From assembly GCA_964368945.1 (NCBI GenBank), contig CAYJDM010000005.1, forward strand, positions 22,699-86,698: a DNA stretch of 64,000 nt, written 5' to 3'. Each line of letters starts with the position of its first letter. Position 1 is the first letter of the stretch. Made by a program: the position numbers and the translations under genes. The notes under the pieces were generated by a model. That model was not told the origin of the DNA and did no database searches. It saw only the letters and a list, made by a program, of their open reading frames with translations. Of the stretch, positions 3,843-42,730 are shown piece after piece. Origin of the DNA: an uncultured Candidatus Saccharibacteria bacterium. GTDB taxonomy: Bacteria > Patescibacteriota > Minisyncoccia > Phycocordibacterales > CAIZLB01.

Positions 3843-5081
3843 ATGAAAAATTCAGATAGAAACTATAAGATCATATTGTGCATCCTCCTCATTGCATTTG
3901 GAGTATTCCTCTATTGGGCATATGGATGCTATGCATCAAAGACGGGAGGACAAGCGATGCGGCAGCATACCCTGGCCGATGACAATGCGCGAGAGATAGC
4001 GGTCCTTTCAGACAAGTCGGGCGAGATTGCCTCAGACAAGAATATAAAGACGGCGCATGACAATGCCGATACGCAGACTCCGACAACCGTATATGCGCCT
4101 TATTCTGCGTCGAATCCGCCCAAGACTTTTTCCATACTTGTAATGCCTGATACTCAATTCTATGCGCAGAGCTATCCTGAGATATTCTGCAAGCAGACCG
4201 AATGGATAGCCGCGAACAAGGCGAAGCTCAATATCCAATTCGTCTCTCAGCTCGGCGATATCGTCAATGACCACAAGGATCGCATCGATGAATGGGAGAC
4301 CGCATCGAAATGCATGAAGGTGCTGGACGATTCGAAAATACCTTACGGCATCATTCCCGGCAACCACGATACCGATGGACAATATCGCGAAGGCGGCATG
4401 CTGACATATGACGCATACTTCCCCGCTTCCCGCTATGATTCGAATTATTGGTATAAGGGAAATCGAAAGAATAATCAGAATAATTATCAGATCATCAATG
4501 TCCAGGTTCCCGATGCCGATGCGTCGGCAGGCTCGATCATAAAGCCGGTTGCTCGCACGATCCAGATGCTTTTTCTCAATCTGGAAATCGAGCCGTCTGA
4601 CAATACCCTCGCCTGGGCTAATTCCATTGTCAAAAAATATCCGAATATCTATACGGTAGTCACGACTCATAAATACCTGCCGGACAGCATCAGCAATGAG
4701 GCAGCGGCGGATGCATATGGCAAGCCCGGAGGACTAACGGCGCCGCTCGATGATAATCGCGCATATAGCCAAAGCGGAAATACCGGCCAGAATATCTGGG
4801 ACAAGCTCGTGAAAGACAATTGCAATATCCGCATGGTGTGGAATGGCCACTATCATATGACCGATGGCGAATTCATGCTCGATTCCAAGAATGCCTGTGG
4901 CACGAATGTCCGCCAGATCATCCAGGATTATCAGGCTCGCGAAGTGGGCGGCAATGGCAGATTGCGAATCTATACATTTGATTTCACTGCAAAAAAGATA
5001 AAGGCGCAGACATATTCGCCGCATACGAAATCATACGAGACCGATGCGGACAGCGAGTTTGAAATGGGTTTTGACATCTAG
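3843..5081 (+). CDS. Calcineurin-like metallophosphoesterase with N-terminal membrane anchor
   Basis: N-terminal TM helix (ILCILLIAFGVFLYWAY). Metallophosphatase motifs VMPDTQ, GDIVND, GNHD. Confidence 0.65.
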   Translation: MKNSDRNYKIILCILLIAFGVFLYWAYGCYASKTGGQAMRQHTLADDNAREIAVLSDKSGEIASDKNIKTAHDNADTQTPTTVYAPYSASNPPKTFSILVMPDTQFYAQSYPEIFCKQTEWIAANKAKLNIQFVSQLGDIVNDHKDRIDEWETASKCMKVLDDSKIPYGIIPGNHDTDGQYREGGMLTYDAYFPASRYDSNYWYKGNRKNNQNNYQIINVQVPDADASAGSIIKPVARTIQMLFLNLEIEPSDNTLAWANSIVKKYPNIYTVVTTHKYLPDSISNEAAADAYGKPGGLTAPLDDNRAYSQSGNTGQNIWDKLVKDNCNIRMVWNGHYHMTDGEFMLDSKNACGTNVRQIIQDYQAREVGGNGRLRIYTFDFTAKKIKAQTYSPHTKSYETDADSEFEMGFDI

Positions 5082-7157: not shown

Positions 7158-8090
7158 TCAAATGGTGACATTGATGGGCGCAGCCGGAGGAAGATCGTCA
7201 TGATCATGCTGCTGAGCGACCGGTTGCTGCTGCCCGCCCTGCGGCTGTGCAGCGCCTTGAGAACTGCCCTGAGAACCCACCCATCCTACCGGAGACTGGG
7301 TTGGCGAGGATGTCTGCACCTGAGGCTGACCAGCTTGCTCGCCAACAGGAGGATGATCCGCGAGCGGAATCTGCTCGACCGCATGAGCCTGCGCATGCTG
7401 CTGAGGCGTCATCGGGAAAGGAGCTTGTGGCGGCGTCTCATGAACCTCGCCTGCGACCGGAGCCTGCTGAATGATCGGCGCGCCCGTCATGATGCCGTCG
7501 CGCTTCTGATGATGATATGTATTCGCGACTTCCGCATAGAAAGCGGGATTTGGAATATGGTGCAGGATAAAAATCGGAGCCAATTTATCATCAAGGCATT
7601 TCAAATCGCCAAAGCGGAATATTTTGCCGAGAAGTCCTTCCTCTATCTGAAAGGATTTCACATTCTTCAGGTCGTATACTGTCTGCGAGCTGAATATGAT
7701 TCCCTTTTTTATCTTGATGACATCAGGCGAGATCATATAATAGTCATTGATATGCACCATGATGATGCCGACTATATAGAGCAGATATGAGAAAACCAAA
7801 ACGAAGCTTATGACCAGGCTTGCCGAATTCATCATTGATGGCTGGCCGGCTGAAGGCGCGGCAGAGAATGCATTTGAGAAAAGAGGAATCAAAACCCCTG
7901 ACAAGAGGACCTGCAAAAGCACCCAAGCGACTATCAGTCCGAGCGTGCCGATTGCGATGCGTGTAATCGGTATGATTATATCCTTGCGGACGATATGGGT
8001 ATAAAGCACCTGCGGCTGAGCGGGAGCCTGTACGGGCGCTTGAGGAGCAGGCTGCGCCGATTGCTGTGGCTGAGTCATATCTGGTGGCAT
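7158..8090 (-). CDS. Membrane protein with bPH_2 (YdbT-like bacterial PH) domain and Pro/Gln-rich disordered tail
   Basis: Start reassigned to the internal ATG (MPPDMTQ). It has TM helices, and IKIKKGIIFSSQTVYDLKNVKSFQIEEGLLGKIFRFGDL is a bPH_2-like motif. The C-terminus is low-complexity and P/Q-rich. Confidence 0.55.
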   Translation of the reverse strand: MPPDMTQPQQSAQPAPQAPVQAPAQPQVLYTHIVRKDIIIPITRIAIGTLGLIVAWVLLQVLLSGVLIPLFSNAFSAAPSAGQPSMMNSASLVISFVLVFSYLLYIVGIIMVHINDYYMISPDVIKIKKGIIFSSQTVYDLKNVKSFQIEEGLLGKIFRFGDLKCLDDKLAPIFILHHIPNPAFYAEVANTYHHQKRDGIMTGAPIIQQAPVAGEVHETPPQAPFPMTPQQHAQAHAVEQIPLADHPPVGEQAGQPQVQTSSPTQSPVGWVGSQGSSQGAAQPQGGQQQPVAQQHDHDDLPPAAPINVTI

Positions 8091-8181
8091 GCAATAAGTG
8101 TACGCTCGAAAAAGAAAAACCGCCACCCGGATGGGCGGCGGCTCTTCTTTCAATTCTGCTTTTATGCAGAATTCTTCATTC

Positions 8182-8655
8182 TTACATATTCGGAGTCGAG
8201 GGAGGATTTGAAGGCATCTCTGGCGCAGCAGCTGACGCTGATGGAGCCGATGGAGCAGCGGGAGCTGCAGGAGCCGCAGTCGCAGTAGCCGTTCGCATGC
8301 CCTTTGGATTCGGGCCATACTTATTGTCCGGGCCGCTATCGCCTACTGTGAATACCAGCAATATGATCCATCCGACGAGAGGAATGAGACCGATAAGCAT
8401 CCACCAGCCGCTTCGATTAGTGTCATGCAATCGTCGTGCCAATACCGCAAGAGACGGAATCAAGACAGCAAGAGAGTATATTGATCCTATGATGCCGATT
8501 GACTCTTCCGCACCTGCTTTTCCAATGAAGCCATCGATAAAGCCGAGTACGAAGCTGATAATGATGTTGAATAGGATAAAAAACCAATATTCTGATCGAG
8601 TCGCTCGTCCAGAGAACGTAGCGTATTTCTTCAAAACCGTTAGATAATGATTCAT
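8182..8655 (-). CDS. DUF805-family inner-membrane protein
   Basis: RATRSEYWFFILFNIIISFV...LARRLHDTNRSGWWMLIGLIPLVGWIILLVF is the characteristic DUF805 pattern. C-terminal Ala/Pro-rich tail. Confidence 0.65.
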   Translation of the reverse strand: MNHYLTVLKKYATFSGRATRSEYWFFILFNIIISFVLGFIDGFIGKAGAEESIGIIGSIYSLAVLIPSLAVLARRLHDTNRSGWWMLIGLIPLVGWIILLVFTVGDSGPDNKYGPNPKGMRTATATAAPAAPAAPSAPSASAAAPEMPSNPPSTPNM

Positions 8656-8796
8656 CTGAGTTAAATAATGCTAATAAGGAATCGCCTATAAGTATAGCAA
8701 ATTAGCCCTGTATGCCAGGACGCCCTGGGGATGATGAAGATTGGATGAAGACGATCTTCCTCGACATCGGCACCCACCTCGTCGCATGGATTCGGC

Positions 8797-10662
8797 CTAT
8801 TTGCCAAAGACCCCTTTGAGGAATTCGGCAACCTTAGGGTATGCATCGAGACGGTTCTTGAGCTTGCTGAGGCCATGGCCTTCATCATGATAGACAAGCA
8901 GCTCTGCCCTGCCTCCTTGCGCGGTGATCTTTTCGACGATCTGCTCTGCCTCATTCAAAGGAACGCGAGGATCATTGGCTCCATGGATTACGAAGAGCGG
9001 CGCCTTTATTTTTTCTATATGATTGATGGGAGAAATATCATGCAAAAGCTGACGATCCGTAGCGAGCGATCCATATTCAGCCTCGCGAATCGCGCGACGA
9101 TATGATGCTGTATTCTCGAGGAATGTGACGAAGTTCGCGATGCCTACGACATCGATTCCGCCAACCCAGCGATCCGGATGAAAAGCGAGACCGGCAAGCG
9201 TCATATATCCGCCATAGCTTCCGCCCATCAGGACGACCTTATTCGCATCAAGTTCCGGCATCGTCTTTATATGATCATGCAGCGATGCGATATCGCTCAC
9301 GGAGTCGAGCCGCTTTTCGACATCGTCCATTGCGAGATATTTCTTTCCATAGCCAGCGCCGCCTCTGACATTCGGTGCAATGACCGCATATCCCTGATAT
9401 ACGAAATATTGAATGAGCAAAGCGAGATTCGGCTGGAATTGCGATTCCGGCCCGCCATGGATATGAATGATGACAGGAACTTTTTCATCGCTCACATTGT
9501 TTGCGGCGGCGGGATTTTTTGGCAGGTATAAAAAAGCAGGGACGCTTAGGCCATCGAATGATTCGTACCTGAATAATGCAGGCTCGACGAGATCTTCTGG
9601 CAGAACACCTTGTGCGGTATTGGTAATAGGCCAGCTTTTCTTTTCATCGATCGAATACATCCAGATATTCGTCGCATGTCGTGAATCATTCGTCGTGACG
9701 ATGAGATTCTTTGAATCGCGGGAAAACCTGCATGAAGTAATAGTCGTCTCCTCAGACAAGCCGGTCAATGGGACAGGAATAAAATTATCGGCATTTCGCG
9801 CATTATTCGAAATATCGAATAAGCGGAGTTTTTCATATCCATCTTCATTGATCTGAACAGCGAGATATTTGCCATCCAGAGATATTGTGCAGCCATTCAC
9901 ATCCCAATCCGGCGTCATGATATATGCGAATTCTTTTTTCCCAATATCAAAAAAGCTCAGGCCACGAAAGTCCCTGCCTTTATCTGTCCTGGTAAAAAAT
10001 CCGCTCTCATCAGGAAGCCATGATGCGCCGCCAAAATATTCCGATCCTTCATGGGCATTGATATGCTCGATCGCTGTTTTTCGCCCTTCAGCATCGAGCG
10101 TAATGAGATAAAGATCCTTGTCCGTATTGGTATTGCTTGTCCTTACCAGCAGATACGATCTGTCGGGAGAAAAGCCCGCTGAATGTGAATCTCCGCCCTT
10201 ATCGAATACGCAATGGCTTTCGCCCGTCTCCATATTCATCAAATAGACATCGAAATCGGTTCCATTTCGTCCATTGTGAGAAAATGAGATGAATTTGCCA
10301 TCTCGAGAAAAGCTCCCGAATGAATGCTTGATTTTAGGATTGTCAGTCAGTGCCTTGGTCGACTTGGTTTCGAGATCATAGAGATAGAATTGCACCTGCT
10401 CATCGCCTCCTTTGTCTTTGCCATAGATGATCTGATTTTTGGTCGGAGAAAAAAGCGCGAAGTCGAGCGCGCCATCGTACGAAGTCAGCTGTTCTGCTTT
10501 GGCGTGATCATCGTCTTTGCCTATCCCTTCGCTCGAAATCAGATAGAGCTGATGCGTACCGCTGGCATTATTGAGAAAAGAAATCAGGCTGCCATCATGA
10601 TTGATCGACAGTGAGCCCGAAGCCTGCACTTTGAGAAAATCACTGATTTGATAGGTTTTCAT
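8797..10662 (-). CDS. S9-family serine peptidase (prolyl oligopeptidase / acylaminoacyl-peptidase-like) with N-terminal beta-propeller
   Basis: C-terminal alpha/beta-hydrolase with GGSYGGYMT nucleophile elbow and a later D and H (HGANDPRV...HGL). The N-terminal repeats look like a TolB/WD40-like propeller. Confidence 0.85.
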   Translation of the reverse strand: MKTYQISDFLKVQASGSLSINHDGSLISFLNNASGTHQLYLISSEGIGKDDDHAKAEQLTSYDGALDFALFSPTKNQIIYGKDKGGDEQVQFYLYDLETKSTKALTDNPKIKHSFGSFSRDGKFISFSHNGRNGTDFDVYLMNMETGESHCVFDKGGDSHSAGFSPDRSYLLVRTSNTNTDKDLYLITLDAEGRKTAIEHINAHEGSEYFGGASWLPDESGFFTRTDKGRDFRGLSFFDIGKKEFAYIMTPDWDVNGCTISLDGKYLAVQINEDGYEKLRLFDISNNARNADNFIPVPLTGLSEETTITSCRFSRDSKNLIVTTNDSRHATNIWMYSIDEKKSWPITNTAQGVLPEDLVEPALFRYESFDGLSVPAFLYLPKNPAAANNVSDEKVPVIIHIHGGPESQFQPNLALLIQYFVYQGYAVIAPNVRGGAGYGKKYLAMDDVEKRLDSVSDIASLHDHIKTMPELDANKVVLMGGSYGGYMTLAGLAFHPDRWVGGIDVVGIANFVTFLENTASYRRAIREAEYGSLATDRQLLHDISPINHIEKIKAPLFVIHGANDPRVPLNEAEQIVEKITAQGGRAELLVYHDEGHGLSKLKNRLDAYPKVAEFLKGVFGK

Positions 10663-26207: not shown

Positions 26208-26510
26208 CTACAGTCTAGAGCGAGCGATGATTTCAATTTCACTCTCTTGTAAATTTGGAAATTTTTTCCTGACATCACCCAACCTCAATCGAGCTTCTTT
26301 ACGAGTCAGGTATCTTAGTCCGAATTTAACTATTTCATTTGGATTTGAATCATTTCTATCATCCTGAGGTGAAAATTCTTCCGCATTTGGATATAAAGGT
26401 GTATTAAAAAGCCTTTGGACTCTTTTTATTTCTCGTTGTTGTCTCTTTTCAGGTGTGAAAAAAGCTATGTAAATTAGCAAAATTATTATAATAATCAACG
26501 AATAAATCAT
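26208..26510 (-). CDS. Small (100 aa) membrane-anchored protein in a locally AT-rich segment
   Basis: N-terminal TM (MIYSLIIIIILLIYIAFF) followed by a charged tail. The surrounding ~400 bp is visibly AT-richer than its neighbours. Confidence 0.35.
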   Translation of the reverse strand: MIYSLIIIIILLIYIAFFTPEKRQQREIKRVQRLFNTPLYPNAEEFSPQDDRNDSNPNEIVKFGLRYLTRKEARLRLGDVRKKFPNLQESEIEIIARSRL

Positions 26511-26661
26511 ACTTAAATTTTATCTCTTATTTGCTGGGAGAGAAGGAATCGGACCTTCATTGAGAGCTTCAAAGGCTCCTGTCCTACCATTAGACGATCT
26601 CCCAATAGATTTGTCAATACCCACTCAATCGAGGGGAATATACGACATATCGCCCACTACT

Positions 26662-27687
26662 TTATACAAAAAACTTGAAAAGCGCCAGCTCAATCGGCAT
26701 CACCGAAACGAAAGTCTTGCCCACCTGCTCCCGATGTGTCAGCAATAATTCGAGCATGCGCATGGCATCTCCGACCTGCTTCTTGCTTTTGACGATTCCC
26801 GCCTCGCTGAGCAGGAATGCGCGCAGCTCAGACATGACGAGATCCGCGAAGATCTTCACATCCATATCCGATTCATGGATTTTTTTCAAAATAGAAATTC
26901 CTGCAGCGAGACCCGTCGCATCCGCAGAGACATCCTCACTCCCCGCTCGTGCGCCAAGAACAGCATCCACAAAGCTCGCAACCAAAAGATGCGGCGGCAC
27001 TGAGATTATTTTCTCAACTTCTTCGAGAGAAACTTTCGCAGAATCCTTTCCGCCTGCCTTGGCCATTCCCACGACAGACTGCAGCGTCGACAAGGTATCT
27101 CTATACGAGCCATTTCCGACCATGGCGATTACCTCGGCGGCTTTTTCATCCATTTCTACGCCCTCCTTGCGCGCCACATTCACGACATGATTCTTGAGCG
27201 TCTCAACAGTGGGCTTGGCAAAATGGAATAACTGGCAGCGCGAGATGATGGTCTCAGGAATCTTATGAAGCTCCGTCGTAGCGAGAATGAAAATCACATG
27301 CTTCGGCGGCTCCTCAAGCGTTTTCAAAAAAGCATTGAAAGCGGATTTCGAAAGCATATGGACCTCGTCCAATATATAGACCTTGAATTTCGAATTCAGC
27401 GGCAAAGTATATACCGCCTCATTCAGCGTTCGGATATCCTCCACGCTGGTATTCGATGCCGCATCGATTTCATAAATATCCTCAGGCGCTGTCCCGATAT
27501 TCTGCGCAAATATTCTGGCTATCGTCGTCTTGCCCGTTCCTCTCGATCCCGCGAAAAGATATGCATGCGATGGCTGTGCGGCTGATTCCACCTTCTTTAC
27601 TTCTGCTTCGAGGATATTGACGATATGGCTCTGACCGACGACTTCGCTGAATTGCGCCGGACGATATTTGCGGTATAGGGATGACAT
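26662..27687 (-). CDS. dnaX: DNA polymerase III subunit gamma/tau (short form, lacks the Zn module)
   Basis: YRKYRPAQFSEVVGQ, Walker A GSRGTGKTTIAR, FKVYILDEVHML, SRC sensor. Confidence 0.8.
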   Translation of the reverse strand: MSSLYRKYRPAQFSEVVGQSHIVNILEAEVKKVESAAQPSHAYLFAGSRGTGKTTIARIFAQNIGTAPEDIYEIDAASNTSVEDIRTLNEAVYTLPLNSKFKVYILDEVHMLSKSAFNAFLKTLEEPPKHVIFILATTELHKIPETIISRCQLFHFAKPTVETLKNHVVNVARKEGVEMDEKAAEVIAMVGNGSYRDTLSTLQSVVGMAKAGGKDSAKVSLEEVEKIISVPPHLLVASFVDAVLGARAGSEDVSADATGLAAGISILKKIHESDMDVKIFADLVMSELRAFLLSEAGIVKSKKQVGDAMRMLELLLTHREQVGKTFVSVMPIELALFKFFV

Positions 27688-27730
27688 GAGGATCAGTATA
27701 GCATTTGATGTTTTTTATGGAAAAAAACAC

Positions 27731-27760
27731 GCCGGCCCTTTCGGGCGCGGCATGCATTAT
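27731..27760 (-). terminator. Intrinsic terminator at the downstream end of the island (before dnaX)
   Basis: GC-rich stem GCCGGCCC tttc GGGCGCGGC with one bulge. Followed on the minus strand by a U-run. Confidence 0.5.
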
Positions 27761-27792
27761 CTAGCGACGAAGCGCAATCGCCTTGCGCGATA

Positions 27793-28287
27793 TCAGCAGC
27801 ATTCGCATGGAACCAAATGACATTTGGTGCAACGGGGCTTCTTGCGTGGGCGAAGCTCATCGTTCGGAATCATGGCGTCTCGTGCCGCATTCAGGAACTC
27901 GGCGACTGTCATGCCGCCTTCCATGGATGCATCTTCCTCCAGATCATCTAGACAGGCAAACACGGTTCGCCAGCCTCCCTTGTCGAGCCTCACGGCCCGA
28001 AATCCCGGCAGGCAGATCATCTGCCAGTAATCTCCGAGGTCAGTGGATGCCTCGGCCTGAATCGGCTTGAAAGCATGAGCATAGATCAGACAATGATCCC
28101 GCACCGTTGACGATCCGCCCAAGATCCGAAAGAGGCCTGCGGCCAGTTCCTTTATCGTGTCTTCAGGCTTGAATAATCGCGCGATACGCGGATGGATTTC
28201 GCCTATCAATTCCCGATCTGTCAGGAAAGCGGCTTCTGCGACTGGTGTTGGTGTTGGCATGGTTCGAGTATCGCCCTCGCCCATCAT
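27793..28287 (-). CDS. Island gene C: hypothetical protein with C-terminal CxxCx4CxCC zinc-knuckle-like motif; paralog of gene B
   Basis: ORF with ATG-ATG start. C-terminus PRCTKCHLVPCECC. Shares the GW..FAC block (RLDKGGWRTVFAC) with gene B (RIKNSGWMQLFAC). Confidence 0.5.
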   Translation of the reverse strand: MMGEGDTRTMPTPTPVAEAAFLTDRELIGEIHPRIARLFKPEDTIKELAAGLFRILGGSSTVRDHCLIYAHAFKPIQAEASTDLGDYWQMICLPGFRAVRLDKGGWRTVFACLDDLEEDASMEGGMTVAEFLNAARDAMIPNDELRPRKKPRCTKCHLVPCECC

Positions 28288-28373
28288 GGACAAGAACTTG
28301 TTTTGGCGATATGCGGATCAGCGATTCGCTGCCATATGCGCAGCACGAATCCCTATCCCGCATATCGCCAAAA
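28266..28373. repeat. Regulatory repeat element copy 1: half-site TATCGCCCT, then inverted repeat TTTTGGCGATATGCGG ... CCGCATATCGCCAAAA (41-nt spacer containing the palindrome CAGCGA-T-TCGCTG)
   Basis: Seen directly. 16-bp perfect inverted repeat at 28301-28316 / 28358-28373, plus an upstream degenerate half-site at 28267-28277. Confidence 0.6.
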
Positions 28374-28447
28374 CCAAGCCGGATCAAAGGGCTATTGTTC
28401 TAAAGACACAATACACCATCGCTGCAAGCCGAGTCAAAAAATGCGCG

Positions 28448-28480
28448 CCGTCCCCACTCGGGGATCGGCGCGCATACTGC
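28448..28480 (-). terminator. Intrinsic terminator after island gene B
   Basis: GCGCGCCGTCCCC actc GGGGA(T)CGGCGCGC, a 13-bp stem with one bulge. Followed on the minus strand by a U-run. Confidence 0.55.
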
Positions 28481-28502
28481 GCATGCTTGCGAACGGCCAT
28501 CT

Positions 28503-28934
28503 TCAGGCCATGGCTTCCTCGACTTGCTTAGGAGCGAATTGAGGAAACGCCCCATAGATATCGCTGAGCGCGATCGTCTCATTCGATCCCCATGAATTCG
28601 TGATATTCCGATTTCTACATGCAAACAGCTGCATCCAGCCGCTATTTTTGATGCGGCGCATGTCCTCAATGGCGACGGGCATCCCGATGAGACCCCGTCG
28701 GATCGTTGAGGCGCTTGCGCCCTTGTTCGGAACATACAGTTCGTTGAAATACACCTTGACCGAAATCAGATCGCCGCCGTCATTCCTCATCACTGCCATG
28801 ACCAGCCCATCAGCAATCCGCTCCAGCGAGGAATTATGGCTTTTTGCAGCCGACGGAAGCACCAGATCCTTCATGATCGCGGCAATAATTTCAAGTGAGA
28901 CTCCGAGAGAGCTGAGTATTTCTTCTTTGTTCAT
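28503..28934 (-). CDS. Island gene B: hypothetical protein, paralog of gene C (no Cys knuckle)
   Basis: Start at the ATG (MNKEEILSSLG). The longer ORF-track start at 29039 would read through the regulatory repeat. Conserved block MRRIKNSGWMQLFAC. Confidence 0.45.
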   Translation of the reverse strand: MNKEEILSSLGVSLEIIAAIMKDLVLPSAAKSHNSSLERIADGLVMAVMRNDGGDLISVKVYFNELYVPNKGASASTIRRGLIGMPVAIEDMRRIKNSGWMQLFACRNRNITNSWGSNETIALSDIYGAFPQFAPKQVEEAMA

Positions 28935-28938
28935 GCTT

Positions 28939-29055
28939 GGATATCGCCCTTTCCGGTCATGGAAAGAATTTTGATTGTTTTGGCGATATGCGAAGGCTCG
29001 GGCAAGGACAAGGGAAAAAGCAAGGGGCGCCAAGAGCATTCGGATATCGCCAAAA
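28939..29055. repeat. Regulatory repeat element copy 2: half-site GGATATCGCCCT, then inverted repeat TTTTGGCGATATGCG ... CGGATATCGCCAAAA (48-nt spacer)
   Basis: Seen directly. Same architecture and half-site sequence as copy 1, 673 bp away. Confidence 0.6.
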
Positions 29056-29195
29056 CGGCTGAGAGAGCGGAAGGCAATGCAAGTATCACAGAAAGATCAT
29101 TCGTGAAAACTATACAATAGGCGCAAAAACTATGCCACTGTGCAAAACCATCTCTGACGGGCAGCGAAAATCTCGGTCAGACAGACAAAAAAAGC

Positions 29196-29221
29196 GCCGT
29201 CCCTTTCGGGACGGCGCTCGA
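29196..29221 (-). terminator. Intrinsic terminator after island gene A
   Basis: GCGCCGTCCC tttc GGGACGGCGC, a perfect 10-bp stem. Followed on the minus strand by a U-run. Confidence 0.6.
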
Positions 29222-29237
29222 ATTTCGAGCTCATGCC

Positions 29238-30026
29238 TCAGCTCGCGGGCATCGATTCAACGGCCTCTACGCGCGGATGGTATTTTTCGAGTCCGAGTGC
29301 TACGAGCGTGCGACAAGCGCATGGCTTATTTCCGCAAGCCAGGCAGCCTTTTCCATAAAAATGGTCGACGGCTGTCGCAAGATCGATCTCGAGCATCGAG
29401 GAAATGGCGCAAATCCACGTGAATACATCCGCAAGCTCCTGAGCATAGCTATCGGCAATGTCATCCGACGTATTGAGCGGCTGCGTCGCATCGATCTCCA
29501 GCATCGCCACTTCGGACACTTCAGAAAAAAGCCGATTGAGCACGCCTTCGATTCCTGCCGCTTGATTATGCGCGCCATATCTTTGACGCAGCGTCTGCTG
29601 CCACATCGATATGCTCCATTCCAATTGCGCAGGATCGATCACGCTTTCGCATGGATTTTCCGATCGCGCCTCAGAGGCGCATGTGCATGGATCCGAGTTG
29701 CAGTACCCGCATTTGTTCGCAGGAAATTTCCGGCAGAGCGTCTCATTGAAGGGAAAGCCGGCATAGAATCCGTCGATGAAAGCCATCAGCCTCGAAAAGA
29801 GCGAAGCGCATGCCTTTCTCAAGACATGCCGATCTCGCTTCTTGCGAATGCAATCGTGAATATAGCGCACTGCCTTGAGCAGGAATGCGCCACGCTCGAG
29901 ACGGCTCCGCATGAGCAGGGAATTCTTCTTGCCGTATATTTCGGCGAAATGGGCCTGCCATGCATCGATTCCATACGTAGTTTTGTCTGTGGTTTCCGGT
30001 GTCGGTATCGCTGAAGAAGATTTCAT
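29238..30026 (-). CDS. Island gene A: tandem all-alpha MazG-like nucleotide pyrophosphohydrolase-like protein; each half ends in a CxxCx4CxC motif
   Basis: The second half aligns to small MazG/YpjD-type NTP-PPases (LFSEVSEVAMLEI; ELADVFTWICAISSMLEIDLATAVDHFYGK). The first half is a degenerate copy. Cys motifs are CGYCNSDPCTC and CLACGNKPCAC. Alternative TTG start at 30041. Confidence 0.55.
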   Translation of the reverse strand: MKSSSAIPTPETTDKTTYGIDAWQAHFAEIYGKKNSLLMRSRLERGAFLLKAVRYIHDCIRKKRDRHVLRKACASLFSRLMAFIDGFYAGFPFNETLCRKFPANKCGYCNSDPCTCASEARSENPCESVIDPAQLEWSISMWQQTLRQRYGAHNQAAGIEGVLNRLFSEVSEVAMLEIDATQPLNTSDDIADSYAQELADVFTWICAISSMLEIDLATAVDHFYGKGCLACGNKPCACRTLVALGLEKYHPRVEAVESMPAS

Positions 30027-30085
30027 TCGCGCTCCTTTCAATGCCTGTATGAGGCGGTTGGATGTTGAGGATGTGTAGTGAAGAA

Positions 30086-31285
30086 CTATTCCTTCAAGAT
30101 CACAGTACCATTAAAATGAGAATCTGTAAATGCCTCAATGATGCGTCGCACATCCGCAGCATTCTCTGCTTTTTCCATCAATTCCATGCGCAATTCCTTG
30201 GCGCCGTCGAATCCGTTTATATATGCCTTGAAGTGCTTTTTCATTATGGCGAAATTCTTGATCGCGCCGAGATGCTTTTCGAATAGCTCAGTGTGGCGGA
30301 TTGCCATCTGCAAACGCTCTTCGATTGTCGGATTATGCGCGGCTGCTGATGACCAGTCGGCATTTTCGCCGGCCTTCTGTTCGTCATTGCCTTTTTTAAT
30401 ATAAAAATTATTCAAACCGCTCCATAGCCAAGGATTGCCGAATAGCGCGCGCCCAAGCATGGCTCCATCGGCTCCCTGCTCCGCCGCTTTCTCCAAACCA
30501 TCTGGCACAGAAACGATATCTCCATTGCCCATGATGAGCGTGCGGTCGATAGGCGCGAGCTCAGCCTGAATCTGATCGCGGATCGCGACAGCTTCGCCGA
30601 CATGTTCCCATCTCGCAGGCACGAGCGACATTTCCTTGCGCGTTCGCGCATGAATAGTGATCGCGGCTGGATGCGCTTCGAGCAAAGCAGGCAGCCAAGT
30701 CGCCAATTCATTTTTGCCATAGCCGATTCGCGTTTTTACCGATACGGGAATCGGCACGCTTATGCCATCAAATGCATTGCGATCAGATGCGGGAGATTTT
30801 CCATCTTCAAAAGCGCGCTTCGCACCGGCCTGCGCAGCGCGAATGATTTCCTGCGCGCGCTTCGGATTCTTGATCATGCCCGCGCCAGCACCCTGCTTCT
30901 CGATTGATTTGTCAGGGCACCCCATATTGATATCAATGCCATCAAATCCGAGCGTCGCGACGAGATATGCTGCCTGCTCCATATATTCAGGATTCGATCC
31001 GAACAATTGCGCGACGATCGGATGCTCGGTCGGGCCGAACAAAAGATCCGCCATCAGCTTCGCCTTCCCTTCCGGAGTAGCGCGCACGATGCCGTCGGCA
31101 GAAACGAATTCCGTCCACATCATATCCGGATTGCCGCATTCGGCGATCAATGTTCGAAAAGCCACATCCGTAACATCCGCCATCGGCGCAAGGACGCTGA
31201 GCGGACGGCCAGGTCGAATAACCTCGCCAGTCGCGATGTCTTTGCCATCGATGATTTCAGTTTTTAGCTTTTGCCAGACATGCAT
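30086..31285 (-). CDS. dus: tRNA-dihydrouridine synthase (Dus family)
   Basis: SVLAPMADVTDVAFR, TIM-barrel FMN motifs, and the catalytic Cys region (GIDINMGCP). Start set at the internal ATG (MHVWQK). Confidence 0.8.
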   Translation of the reverse strand: MHVWQKLKTEIIDGKDIATGEVIRPGRPLSVLAPMADVTDVAFRTLIAECGNPDMMWTEFVSADGIVRATPEGKAKLMADLLFGPTEHPIVAQLFGSNPEYMEQAAYLVATLGFDGIDINMGCPDKSIEKQGAGAGMIKNPKRAQEIIRAAQAGAKRAFEDGKSPASDRNAFDGISVPIPVSVKTRIGYGKNELATWLPALLEAHPAAITIHARTRKEMSLVPARWEHVGEAVAIRDQIQAELAPIDRTLIMGNGDIVSVPDGLEKAAEQGADGAMLGRALFGNPWLWSGLNNFYIKKGNDEQKAGENADWSSAAAHNPTIEERLQMAIRHTELFEKHLGAIKNFAIMKKHFKAYINGFDGAKELRMELMEKAENAADVRRIIEAFTDSHFNGTVILKE

Positions 31286-31351: not shown

Positions 31352-31495
31352 AAAAATGTGACCCGTCCCCCACAGGGTGAGGACGGGTCGTGCTGGTCGA
31401 TGCATGGGGCTACGGATTTTCGCTCAGGCTTGATGCCGTCGCTAAGTCTATTCAATTCGCAGCCGGCCATGTCCTTTGGACATTGTCGGCAGCAC
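31352..31495 (-). ncRNA. Candidate ~140-nt small RNA or attenuator leader upstream of dus (promoter to terminator)
   Basis: Minus-strand near-consensus promoter TTGACT-16-TATAAT (plus-strand coordinates 31524-31529 / 31502-31507). It is followed ~110 nt later by hairpin GACCCGTCC...GGACGGGTC (31360-31389) plus a U7 tract. No ORF fits inside. Confidence 0.35.
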
Positions 31496-31501
31496 ATAAG
31501 T

Positions 31502-31529
31502 ATTATAGCATAGTTGCAATAATAGTCAA
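31502..31529 (-). promoter_or_regulatory. Near-consensus sigma70-type promoter (TTGACT-16 nt-TATAAT) on the minus strand
   Basis: Hexamers read directly from the reverse complement of 31502-31529. Confidence 0.5.
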
Positions 31530-41764: not shown

Positions 41765-42550
41765 TTATTCCTTAGGCACGCCATGGAAAATCCTCCAAAT
41801 GAGATGATTGATCTCATCGATCAGCTTGAATCGATGCGTCGGTTTTTCTTTTTCCGAAACAGCGATCGTGGCCGCAGGCTCTGGTTTTGGCTCAGGGTCA
41901 AGTGTCCATTTTTCGCCATTGGTAATTGCAAGGAAGCGCAGGAACGGCAGGCTTTCAATAGACTCGGGACCGTAAACGGATTGCCGCATAGGAGTAAAAT
42001 GCGTATCGGCAAAATTGCCAAGCGCATAATAGTTTCGAGGATCAGTGACACGATCCATCATCGAAGAATCTTTGAAGGCGGCGCCAAAGTAGATATCGGC
42101 AGTCGGACGGTCGGACTGACCATGCGAAGGCAAACAAATGGCGACATATAAAAGATTCCAAGGCGACGAATTGTAACGACCGCTCCTAAGCTTACGATAG
42201 AGGCAAACCTTGACACTGTATGTTCCGCCCAGATAACTGGTGACGGAAGGCCCGTACATGACCCAGGAACCCTGTGCGTGGACGATACAGGTCTGAATAA
42301 CCCCCTCCTCGCAACCTTCTGGCGTTGCAGTTTCCCATTCCTCAAGAGGCATTGCCGGCTTCACGACACTCGTATTGGGCTCATCGCCATCCATCCACAC
42401 CTGTACATCGCAATGATGATAGAAGTGGATGGAGATTTCGTCATGCAGGGCACATGTGCGCTGTTTTACTGCAAGACGTGCGATTTCGAGGGCTGTCGTG
42501 ACCGCGGAGGTGTGGACCGCTTTGCTTTTCGTTGTATTTTGTAGTTTCAT
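41765..42550 (-). CDS. Hypothetical protein (261 aa) with a long structured 5' leader
   Basis: Clean ORF with its own promoter and terminator. No recognised domain. Confidence 0.5.
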   Translation of the reverse strand: MKLQNTTKSKAVHTSAVTTALEIARLAVKQRTCALHDEISIHFYHHCDVQVWMDGDEPNTSVVKPAMPLEEWETATPEGCEEGVIQTCIVHAQGSWVMYGPSVTSYLGGTYSVKVCLYRKLRSGRYNSSPWNLLYVAICLPSHGQSDRPTADIYFGAAFKDSSMMDRVTDPRNYYALGNFADTHFTPMRQSVYGPESIESLPFLRFLAITNGEKWTLDPEPKPEPAATIAVSEKEKPTHRFKLIDEINHLIWRIFHGVPKE

Positions 42551-42585
42551 TTTGACACAATCAATGTGCTAACGACCAGACGCTC

Positions 42586-42629
42586 TTACCTGGAAATCCA
42601 GCACCTCAGCATGAGGTGCTGGAAGGTAA
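42586..42629 (-). promoter_or_regulatory. Long interrupted hairpin in the 5' leader (TTACCT gg aaa TCCAGCACCTCA gca TGAGGTGCTGGA AGGTAA)
   Basis: 12-bp perfect stem plus 6-bp outer stem. No U-tract. 37 nt before the start codon. Further small hairpins lie upstream in the ~165-nt leader. Confidence 0.4.
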
Positions 42630-42730
42630 TAACGCAGACCGTTGTTGCCATCAAGACAACGCATTAGAAGCATGCGAATGTATCCAATGCATTGTCCTGA
42701 AACTGCAACCAGTGAAAAATCTCCTTTACA

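Follow-up and report, generated by a model that had tools for sequence, protein, structure and literature searches.

The window analysed here, a 64,000-nucleotide stretch from the genome of an ultra-small Paceibacterota (Patescibacteria) bacterium, contains three minus-strand genes, termed A, B and C, between the start of dnaX (27687) and the stop of dus (30086). An initial annotation had described them as a GC-rich island, made up of a separately regulated MazG-like enzyme and two paralogs of possible defence or toxin-immunity function, which raises the question of whether they form a single accessory module. Our analysis leans, with modest confidence, towards another reading, in which A, B and C are lineage-specific cargo of a variable dus-dnaX interval with two functionally separable parts, namely a dus-linked two-unit MazG-family protein (A) and two paralogs (B and C) placed under a shared structured leader. 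The reading frames themselves, A (29238-30026), B (28503-28934) and C (27793-28287), were borne out by an ORF check and by public gene calls, which agree on products of 262, 143 and 163 aa.

The dus gene (30086-31285, minus strand) encodes a tRNA dihydrouridine synthase (Pfam Dus, E = 2.8e-54) whose likely start, MHVWQKL at 31285, was deduced from alignment with the Dus protein of the closest relative, L005; the mechanical ORF extends to 31405. On the other side, dnaX (26662-27687, minus strand) is a short version of 341 aa (Pfam DNA_pol3_delta2, E = 1e-30). A promoter scan placed a promoter-like site at 27695-27723, and since its -10-like TATACT lies only 7 nt 5' of the ATG, the dnaX mRNA is probably leaderless. 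Comparison with relatives across Paceibacterota revealed dus-dnaX synteny in 14 related loci, where 52-5997 bp of heterogeneous, unrelated content lie between the two genes. The distance is 52-107 bp in L017 and L018 but reaches 6 kb in other relatives, while L005 carries A without B and C, so the contents of the interval are polymorphic. Other genomes harbor housekeeping genes in the gap, such as guaB-like, purA-like and rimK-like ORFs, as judged from reading the translations.

The GC enrichment was smaller than the 57-60% first attributed to 27700-30085. This segment measures 52.9% against a window mean of 48.7%, about 4 points higher and at the 99.7th percentile of same-size windows (sd 2.2), and GC contents of 51.9% and 50.8% were found for dus and for the 8 kb to the right of the segment. 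The GC3 of the three genes (0.58-0.61) is ordinary within the window, and their codon-usage scores (z of +0.2, -0.8 and -0.5 for A, B and C) all lie within 1 sd of it. GC is raised and codon usage looks native, so that together they give no clear signature of recent acquisition. No flanking direct repeats around the segment appeared in the repeat tables, the tRNA-Gln gene lies on the far side of dnaX and not at the border of the segment, and the neighbours scanned between 17.6 and 36.3 kb are glycan synthesis and glycolysis genes, with no integrase, recombinase, mobile-element or defence gene among them. The idea of an island holds for the lineage-specific content, with an empty dus-dnaX gap in L017 and L018, but draws no support from codon usage or mobile-element features and no clear one from composition.

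Gene A begins 59 nt past the dus stop and is preceded, 6 nt upstream, by the Shine-Dalgarno sequence AAAGGAG. Because the scan detected neither a terminator nor a recognisable promoter-like site in these 59 nt, A probably rides on the dus transcript, and its separate regulation is doubtful.

Family alignments divide the A protein into two MazG-like units. The first (about residues 20-116; 29679-29969, minus strand) is degenerate, lacks the ExxE/ExxD residues and terminates in KFPxxxCxxCx4CxC, with knuckle 1 at 29679-29711. The second (about residues 137-238; 29313-29618, minus strand) is of the catalytic type and terminates in CxxCx4CxC, with knuckle 2 at 29313-29345. In a 4-sequence alignment, the residues of the ExxE...ExxD metal motif (E169, E172, E197 and D200) are invariant in unit 2, as are K100, F101, P102, C106, C109, C114 and C116 at the end of unit 1 and C228, C231, C236 and C238 at the end of unit 2. 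The metal motif and both Cys4 knuckles stayed aligned when three more two-unit proteins were added (7 sequences), and a regex search detected both CxxCx4-5CxC knuckles in 8/8 two-unit proteins. Against the Pfam MazG family (PF03819), A scored 14.6 bits as a whole protein and 16.1 bits for its C-terminal half (E = 0.014-0.04), below the gathering cut-off of 22 bits; this cut-off was passed by its full-length homologs from L117 (48.0 bits), L121 (45.2 bits, with both units matching) and a Vibrio phage (26.7 bits). A profile built from A and its L005 homolog matched PDB 1vmg over the whole domain (chain residues 11-93, E = 2.8e-7), and BLASTP aligned A with the L117 protein over its full length (E = 6e-22). 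Full-length relatives occur in other Patescibacteria-like contigs. Profile, pairwise and alignment evidence thus agree on the MazG-like C-terminal domain and degenerate N-terminal copy first proposed, and on these sequence data A is classified as a divergent two-unit MazG-family NTP pyrophosphohydrolase, with a catalytic-type C-terminal unit and a degenerate N-terminal unit.

In the mechanism that we propose, unit 2 would use its Mg2+ site to split a (d)NTP, or a nucleotide related to it, into the monophosphate and PPi, and unit 1, as an inactive structural copy, would take the place that a second subunit normally has in a MazG dimer. The Cys4 knuckles probably bind zinc. In an organism that salvages nucleotides, the most likely role of A would be nucleotide-pool sanitation or nucleotide control; its homologs adjoin dnaX in L005 and recG in L117, a DNA-metabolism context.

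Comparison with known proteins places A unit 2 close to the single-domain MazG of the SSO3215 type (PF03819; 1vmg), with which it aligns over the whole domain and shares the same ExxE...ExxD motif. A differs from this type in its strong divergence below the Pfam cut-off, and in its fusion behind a degenerate unit in place of a homodimer. From more than 500 metagenome stretches with MazG domains, 80 loci were kept, and 49 of these encode proteins of 88-116 aa (about 97 aa) with a CPxCxxxPCxC C-terminal tail; this KY..GC..C....C.C ending is common to A unit 2, and the solved 1vmg chain ends where the Cys tail starts in the tailed proteins. E. coli MazG resembles A in that a single chain holds two tandem all-alpha NTP-PPase domains that contribute unequally to catalysis, but it is not known to have Cys4 knuckles, differs in size and has two recognisable domains. 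No direct sequence match was obtained between A and E. coli MazG.

The same two-unit architecture as in A, with a degenerate unit 1 running into KFP..C..C....C.C and a catalytic unit 2 closed by the second knuckle, was found by tblastn in "MazG-like family proteins" of E. coli IncY plasmids (WP_000944483.1) and of a filamentous Vibrio phage, or inovirus (PQ189347; XLL20512.1), which match 80-84% of A with about 24% identity. These proteins of 330 aa continue C-terminally into a helical extension of about 100 aa, which is missing from A; A ends 24 residues past knuckle 2 and belongs, with its L005, L117 and L121 homologs, to a short subtype. They are also phage or plasmid cargo, the IncY plasmids being presumably P1-type phage-plasmids, whereas A is chromosomal and lies 3' of dus.

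The two other genes encode near-orphans, with only two known members for B and three for C among about 15 billion proteins. B is 143 aa long, while C measures about 163-164 aa from its first AUG (AUG1) or 155 aa from a second one (AUG2, 28260). The R....GW..(V/L)FAC block reported for both was indeed present, at 28617-28655 in B and 27952-27990 in C. Beyond this, protein similarity is weak (BLASTP E = 0.004 over 13 aa; hhalign probability of 7-10% over 48-68 columns), although the similar blocks are collinear. The clearly homologous leaders and terminators make the claimed paralogy plausible despite this weak similarity, and B and C are probably paralogs. At its C-terminus, C carries a CxxCx4CxC knuckle (27799-27831) that matches the MazG tail (hhalign probability of 79.5%), so that C appears to share the Cys4 knuckle of MazG proteins. 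No Pfam, NCBIfam or PHROG domain was found in B or C, and their AlphaFold models (pLDDT of 36 and 41, respectively) were unusable and gave no fold assignment.

The orphan status of B and C and the missing fold predictions would fit decaying or non-functional duplicates, or mis-called ORFs. We judge this very unlikely, given that two diverged genomes both keep the frames open, with dS values of 0.58-0.67 against L004 and dN/dS values of 0.36 for B (63% aa identity to its L004 ortholog) and 0.28 for C. C matches P0002 with 74% identity and P0005 with 38% identity (E = 6e-23), and the latter retains both length and motifs. B and C thus evolve fast yet under purifying selection (dN/dS of about 0.3). 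Over the same comparison, dnaX has a dN/dS of 0 and is 100% identical at the amino acid level, against 63-74% for B/C. This contrast, the confinement of the family to a few genomes and the tandem layout of the small cytoplasmic paralogs, whose promoters and terminators are their own, could also describe a diverging array of orphan proteins of the immunity or host-interaction type, unrelated to A. An episymbiont would retain such proteins to protect itself from factors of its partner cell or to interact with them. Such a role is improbable in our view and a matter of pure analogy; neither a toxin gene nor a secretion signal or known immunity domain was found.

Each of the three genes ends, as initially annotated, in its own GC-rich hairpin with a T-run. 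The terminator after A (29192-29219, minus strand; 12-bp stem with 9 GC pairs, T7) was detected by the terminator scan, and those after B (28448-28480, minus strand) and C (27731-27760, minus strand) by sequence reading together with inverted repeat I16 and repeat D5, respectively. In L004, the B terminator is conserved with a loop change only and the C terminator keeps its stem with changed bases; the L004 contig stops short of the terminator of A. Consensus matching alone yielded a weak promoter-like site for B (GTGGCA-18-TATAGT; 29109-29138, minus strand) and another for C (TTGACT-18-TATTGT; 28408-28437, minus strand), the latter being conserved in L004 and overlapped at its -35 by the T-run of the B terminator. 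B and C would therefore each constitute an independent promoter-leader-CDS-terminator unit, as predicted from these signals.

These units bear on the proposed defence role, in which A would respond to a phage by depleting or destroying nucleotides (dNTPs, alarmones or signalling nucleotides), with B and C as sensors, regulators or immunity partners, C docking onto A through the shared Cys4 tail. MazG-like domains have been reported as effectors in rare PUA-HAD defence systems, where they replace Calcineurin-CE (bioRxiv 10.64898/2026.01.15.699771), and as the phage anti-defence protein Atd1 (PMC10419184). A has the enzyme superfamily and a nucleotide-directed chemistry in common with both, a likeness at the level of the superfamily alone; its locus contains no PUA, HAD, NTase or other partner gene. 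The fast evolution of B and C, the knuckle of C and the variability of the interval would suit such a role, and since the full-length A relatives retrieved from annotated phage and plasmid collections sit on mobile elements, some part in conflict is conceivable. However, PADLOC (PADLOC-DB v2) returned no significant match for A, its homologs, B or C: the best match of A, PtuB, was below significance (E = 0.01, 13 bits, 37 residues), and the A homologs yielded only weak coiled-coil LmuB noise. B and C had no significant match in PHROG, phage records or viral contigs. A homologs occur without B and C in every other locus examined (L005, L117 and the 80 metagenome loci). The neighbouring genes and the native codon usage described above, together with dN/dS values well below 1 and no sign of diversifying selection across the whole B and C genes, also argue against defence or counter-defence. 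As each gene is its own terminated unit, with terminators and promoter-like sites separating A, B and C, no type II toxin-antitoxin architecture is present. We therefore consider a defence role improbable and speculative; nothing links the three genes to phage defence, and what had been presented as the best candidate for an undescribed system is instead a modest curiosity.

The duplicated element noted upstream of B and C proved to be real and better conserved than their coding sequences. A 16-mer, GTTTTGGCGATATGCG, occurs four times here with at most 1 mismatch, whereas 0.9 matches would be expected in the whole window even at up to 3 mismatches, and the leaders of the two genes are homologous. 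In B, a long hairpin P1 (28977-29056, minus strand; inverted repeat I2, 23 nt, 91%; RNA fold z of -3.4) has a basal 16-bp stem common to the C leader and an upper stem of its own, with a CU-rich loop. It is followed by a small hairpin P2 (CUUUCC-AUGACC-GGAAAG; 28941-28965, minus strand) presenting AUG1, then by box 3, GGCGAUAU. A 9-codon uORF, MTGKGDIQA-stop (28930-28959), overlaps the B start as AUGA. In C, P1 (28300-28374, minus strand; inverted repeat I1, 29-nt arms, 86% complementary) has fold z values of -5.7 in the window and -5.5 in L004 and the lowest MFE among 36 gene 5' regions; by fold z, the leaders of the window rank 2nd and 4th among these 36. The start region of C (28256-28297, minus strand) comprises P2 with AUG1 (28273-28297), box 3, GGCGAUAC (about 28268-28275), and AUG2 (28258-28260), which is able to pair with the segment just 5' of P1 in a tentative helix P0 (28374-28380) whose register differs between genomes. 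No candidate start of either gene has a well-placed Shine-Dalgarno sequence, so that the assigned start sites are tentative.

The C leader, over about 75 nt, is 100% identical to that of L004, compared with about 94% for dnaX and about 80% for the C coding sequence, and in the B leader a U-A pair of P2 is replaced by C-G in L004, a compensatory change. In 4/4 leaders, the P1 3' arm is predicted to be able to pair with box 3 instead, these four copies from two closely related genomes being all that is known of the element; searches of the 64-kb window and of 1.5 Mb of related loci gave no further copy. Rfam identified only the tRNA in the window and nothing meaningful at E≤5 in 27600-30200. Since the leader is more conserved than the coding sequence and contains a compensatory change, control at the RNA level appears to be the best reading. 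In this scheme, P1 with its invariant 16-bp base, P2 carrying the first AUG and the GGCGAUA box would form mutually exclusive structures, the box pairing alternatively with the P1 3' arm and the leader 5' end with the true start region, so that a shared trans-acting factor or condition would govern either translation initiation or mRNA stability of both genes. Mutually exclusive pairings, AUG-enclosing hairpins and a leader more conserved than its coding sequence are also features of start-occluding leaders such as RNA thermometers, ribosomal-protein autoregulatory leaders and riboswitch expression platforms. The B/C leader differs in having no conserved internal loop or junction hinting at a metabolite pocket, its conserved part being a perfect 16-bp duplex.

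The same conservation could reflect sites acting as DNA. Neither the 16-bp base of P1 nor the boxes vary between paralogous leaders or between genomes; they therefore show no covariation and may just as well be sites bound by a protein on the DNA. On this view, a shared repressor, perhaps B or C, would recognise the three GGCGATA(T) boxes (two inverted, one direct) as operators, and the ability to form hairpins would be incidental. GGCGATAT occurs 15 times in the window against 3.8 expected, 5 of the 15 copies lying here, and DNA-binding proteins, more typically than dsRNA-binding ones, recognise a perfect duplex by its sequence. Against this stand the upper P1 stems, wholly different in sequence between B and C and still self-complementary, and the compensatory change in P2. 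The elements also occupy +26 to +130 relative to the predicted promoters, on their downstream side, the inner ends of the inverted 16-mers are separated by 43 nt in one leader and 48 nt in the other, which is awkward for a dimeric repressor, and the leader of the distant C homolog in L114 retains the architecture and not the sequence, with a hairpin enclosed by a 9-bp helix between its 5' end and codons 4-6. Operators are thus a serious but unlikely alternative to RNA-level control.

The 16-nt terminal inverted repeats of P1 also resemble MITE ends, so that the hairpins could be leftovers of such elements beside decayed genes. No target-site duplication was found, and the element is not repeated elsewhere in the sequences searched. 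The sequences 3' of both hairpins are homologous, indicating that hairpin and gene were duplicated together. Integron attC sites were considered and rejected: an attC site has its RYYYAAC core ahead of its GTTRRRY core and forms the 3' end of a cassette that has no promoter, whereas the hairpins show GTTTTGG...CCAAAAC on both strands and stand 5' of genes with their own promoters and terminators.

Under RNA-level control, a more far-reaching version of our preferred reading, which we regard as a long shot, is that the B/C leader represents a new class of cis-regulatory RNA switch sensing either a nucleotide handled by the MazG-like protein or protein C through its MazG-type putative zinc knuckle. 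If this were true, dus, A, B and C would make up a self-contained nucleotide-surveillance or conflict circuit peculiar to this Paceibacterota lineage.

On the minus strand between 26.6 and 31.4 kb, transcription runs in the order dus (30086-31285), gene A (29238-30026, 262 aa), gene B (28503-28934, 143 aa), gene C (27793-28287, 163 aa in the public gene call), dnaX (26662-27687) and tRNA-Gln (26533-26604), dus and dnaX being assigned by Pfam and the tRNA by a tRNA search. The A, B and C products (262, 143 and 163 aa) are the same in public gene calls for three Logan contigs from this organism. The initial annotation had given each of the three genes its own terminator, and all three terminators are real. 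That of A was recovered by a terminator scan (12-bp stem, 9 GC, T7 tail), and those of B and C were read straight from the sequence and are also present in the repeat table. The closely related contig L004, which ends before the terminator of A, keeps those of B and C, with base changes that preserve the stems. The description of the MazG gene as separately regulated looks doubtful: since the 59-nt dus-A spacer contains neither a terminator nor a promoter-like site, A is probably co-transcribed with dus.

Upstream of dus, a sequence that fits the promoter consensus very well (TTGACT-16-TATAAT with TG, 31529-31502, minus strand) is followed after about 100 nt by a terminator-like hairpin and T-run (31389-31360), about 75 nt before the likely start at 31285. 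This hairpin could act as an attenuator in the leader; for the region as a whole (31353-31529, minus), fold z is only -1.9. The dnaX ATG lies 7 nt past a -10-like TATACT, itself directly after the C terminator (27688-27723) and kept in L004, and this short distance suggests a leaderless dnaX mRNA.

The segment carrying A, B and C has a GC content of 52.9%, below the 57-60% first claimed, compared with 48.7% for the window (sd 2.2 over same-size windows). At the 99.7th percentile, it is still the window's GC-richest stretch, and its neighbours come near it (dus 51.9%, the 8 kb to the right 50.8%). GC is thus raised as proposed, but codon usage is not unusual: GC3 of the three genes (0.58-0.61) and their codon-usage log-likelihood z among 59 ORFs (A +0.2, B -0.8, C -0.5) are ordinary for the window and therefore carry no signature of recent foreign origin. 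No mobile-element genes were found among the scanned neighbours; further out, the region is flanked by glycan biosynthesis genes on one side and by glycolysis genes on the other. A far stronger outlier than this segment is a 100-aa ORF adjoining tRNA-Gln (26208-26510, minus; 32.7% GC, z -4.3, GC3 0.24), with a hydrophobic N-terminus and no match in Pfam.

Taken alone, A scores below the cut-off on Pfam MazG (14.6 bits, E 0.04). A two-sequence profile of A and its homolog from the closest relative, L005, matched the Sulfolobus MazG-type structure 1vmg across the whole domain (E 2.8e-7), and a 230-aa two-unit protein encoded downstream of recG in the metagenome locus L117 (48 bits on PF03819) matched A end to end (E 6e-22). 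Two mobile-element proteins, both of 330 aa, matched 80-84% of A by tblastn: a cargo protein of a Vibrio filamentous phage (E 5e-6; itself 26.7 bits on Pfam MazG) and a 'MazG-like family protein' of E. coli IncY plasmids (E 1e-3). A four-sequence alignment revealed invariant residues in a first cysteine knuckle (K100, F101, P102, C106, C109, C114 and C116), in the ExxE (E169, E172) and ExxD (E197, D200) motifs of the C-terminal unit 2, and in a second knuckle (C228, C231, C236 and C238), and these stayed aligned when three further two-unit proteins were added. The N-terminal unit 1 lacks the acidic residues. This homology, together with the loss of acidic residues from unit 1, identifies A at the sequence level as a divergent, short-subtype member of the two-unit MazG family, with one putatively catalytic and one degenerate unit. 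The 1vmg match, the L117 match and the alignments thereby support the original view of a MazG-like protein with a degenerate N-terminal copy.

Searched by word index against 5.8 billion proteins, A matched only itself, and a scan of viral contigs with the A alignment returned nothing. The metagenome MazG scan yielded over 500 stretches, and 80 loci were kept. Single-domain MazG proteins of 88-116 aa ending in KY..GCPxCxxxPCxC are encoded at 49 of these 80 loci, and two-unit proteins by a few stretches. Both representatives of the tailed single-domain proteins that were scanned are solid PF03819 members, one matching 1vmg with E 3e-24. The solved 1vmg structure ends at the residue where the CPxCxxxPCxC tail of these proteins starts, and no description of this tail was found among the 12 best-ranked papers of a literature search on MazG and zinc knuckles.

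The relatives identified through dnaX are Patescibacteria/Paceibacterota MAGs, the closest GTDB representative being 65% identical. Of 24 related loci, 14 have dus in front of dnaX and co-oriented with it, the two genes being 52 bp to 6 kb apart. This gap occurs without A, B and C in other genomes: it is empty in L017 and L018, holds PGI-like, guaB-like and purA-like genes in L010 and rimK-like genes in L027 (all named by eye, those of L010 from translations), and in other related loci is occupied by genes for membrane proteins and for an HTH-like protein. In L005 it holds a gene for a secreted Ig-like protein, a minus-strand gene, the A homolog (38% identity, tblastn) and an unrelated small ORF. 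Because these contents are unrelated, the dus-dnaX interval is a slot of variable content in Paceibacterota. A is older than B and C in this lineage.

The L005 gap includes a GC-rich, convergent 138-aa ORF (7970-8386, minus) that has a terminator to itself and no match in Pfam, adjoining a 405-aa secreted Kre9/KNH-like Ig-domain protein. In the Yonathbacteria locus L007, three tandem ORFs of 146, 165 and 195 aa (8212-9856) lie directly upstream of dnaX; considered as relatives of B and C, they were found by hhalign to be unrelated. This locus hints that small uncharacterised genes repeatedly move into the slot.

B and C have a very narrow distribution. The word-indexed search of 5.8 billion proteins returned self matches and a single C ortholog (P0002, 74%), and running a C profile exhaustively against 1.84 billion representatives with HMMER added one distant homolog, P0005 (38% identical, E 6e-23), on a 627-nt contig. 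A weak match of this profile to CarboxypepD_reg-like repeats (P0006) is probably spurious. Nothing was found for B or C in Pfam, NCBIfam, PHROGs or PADLOC, in phages by tblastn, in viral contigs scanned with their alignments, or among plasmids; a PDB sequence search with their profiles gave only noise (such as MelC caddie and designed helical repeats). The A homolog on the E. coli plasmid is preceded by two small genes that look by eye phage-structural and unrelated to B and C. AlphaFold2 models were unusable (pLDDT 41 for C from two sequences, 36 for B from a single sequence). The 1.76-kb L004 contig encodes B-like (63% aa) and C-like (74% aa) proteins beside a dnaX with a 100% identical protein and about 94% identical DNA. 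Nei-Gojobori dN/dS against L004 was 0.36 for B, 0.28 for C and 0 for dnaX (dS 0.67, 0.58 and 0.35, respectively); purifying selection, though relaxed, acts on B and C, which are real genes.

Regarding their proposed paralogy, protein similarity is weak, limited to a 13-aa block (BLASTP, E 0.004) and 48-68 collinear columns at 7-10% hhalign probability, but at the DNA level homology is clear for the leaders, first codons and terminators, so that duplication of the whole cassette is the simplest account. C ends in a CxxCx4CxC knuckle, absent from B, which matches the profile of the MazG tail at 79.5% hhalign probability. A reading of the B and C bodies as degenerate MazG units was rejected, as hhalign matched only the 11-residue knuckle of C. 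The B frame is open upstream to an ATG at 29039 (178 aa; 28935-29039, minus), which would add MLLAPLAFSLVLARAFA..., resembling a signal peptide without a charged n-region. The codons of this putative extension lie in the CU-rich loop and the 3' arm of a leader hairpin, P1, and public gene calls use the 143-aa start.

The promoter-like sites of B and C abut the preceding terminators, with the leader elements downstream. In both mRNAs the predicted order is the long hairpin P1, a small hairpin P2 with the first AUG, a third GGCGAUA box (box 3) and the second AUG (AUG2). P1 has arms of 23 nt in B and 29 nt in C; its basal 16 bp (GUUUUGGCGAUAUGCG / CGCAUAUCGCCAAAAC) differ by one base, and its upper stems are unrelated in sequence, each self-complementary. 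In B, the first AUG begins a uORF of nine codons (MTGKGDIQA), its stop codon sharing an AUGA with the B start; in C, the corresponding codons (MMGEGDTRT) are joined in frame through a 1-nt difference. The start of P0005 corresponds to the position of AUG2. Compared with shuffled sequences, fold z was -5.7 for C, -3.4 for B and -5.5 for the L004 C leader; among the 5' regions of 36 genes, the two window leaders rank 2nd and 4th. A stretch of about 75 nt in the C leader, running from the 3' arm of P1 to codon 11, is 100% identical to L004, versus about 80% for the C coding sequence, and two of the three differences between the B leaders form a compensatory U-A to C-G pair in P2.

When the P1 5' arm is removed, the 3' arm is predicted to pair with box 3 and stack on P2 in all four leaders, giving the leader two mutually exclusive modelled conformations. 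The segment directly 5' of P1 is also predicted to be able to pair with the AUG2 region (a tentative P0). The leader of the distant homolog in L114 differs in sequence; its predicted fold (z -3.3) has an internal hairpin enclosed by a perfect 9-bp helix between the 5' end and codons 4-6. The shared leader reads as an RNA-level element that would control translation initiation or mRNA stability. The invariance of the GGCGAUA boxes would also suit a DNA operator, which we consider an unlikely explanation.

The RNA-level candidate has no Rfam match, and 1.5 Mb of related loci contain its motif only in the same species and in L004. A leader 15-mer gave 85 single matches, attributed to chance, and no inverted pair in viral contigs; a 16-mer copy at 4760-4775, inside an unrelated plus-strand gene, is likewise a chance match. 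Readings of the hairpins as MITE, attC or CRISPR repeats were rejected on sequence grounds. Elsewhere in the window, a leader some 150 nt long that is strongly structured, with two long hairpins (42560-42730, minus; RNAfold z -7.1, no Rfam match at gathering score), lies behind a near-consensus promoter (TTGACA-N17-TATTAT) and precedes a 261-aa gene (41765-42550) heading a type IV pilus-like operon (T2SSE ATPase, T2SSF).

The three genes had been proposed as a defence or toxin-immunity module. MazG-like domains are indeed effectors in rare PUA-HAD systems (bioRxiv 10.64898/2026.01.15.699771), a MazG-like phage anti-defence protein, Atd1, has been described (PMC10419184), and the long-subtype relatives of A ride mobile elements. 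The A locus shares the domain with such conflict systems but lacks partner genes, yields no PADLOC matches and shows no defence, toxin-antitoxin or clear genomic-island membership; its composition is native, each gene is separately terminated, and A homologs occur elsewhere without B and C. A defence role consequently appears improbable. We lean slightly towards a nucleotide-pool enzyme adjoining DNA-replication genes, accompanied by two co-regulated lineage-specific proteins. A would act on the nucleotide pool of an organism that, like Patescibacteria in general, probably depends on salvaged nucleotides, with B and C as the co-regulated pair.

The locus makes no long-standing question testable, and its overall value is modest, in three respects. 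The dus-dnaX junction is shown to be variable in Paceibacterota genomes. P1, P2 and box 3 form a compact candidate regulatory RNA in Patescibacteria, where to our knowledge cis-regulatory RNAs are hardly described, although its narrow distribution limits its general importance. Finally, A documents a short, chromosomal subtype of the two-unit MazG family with paired Cys4 knuckles, whereas the long subtype, for which we know of no function, is carried by phage-plasmids and filamentous phages; biochemical work on one subtype would shed light on the other.
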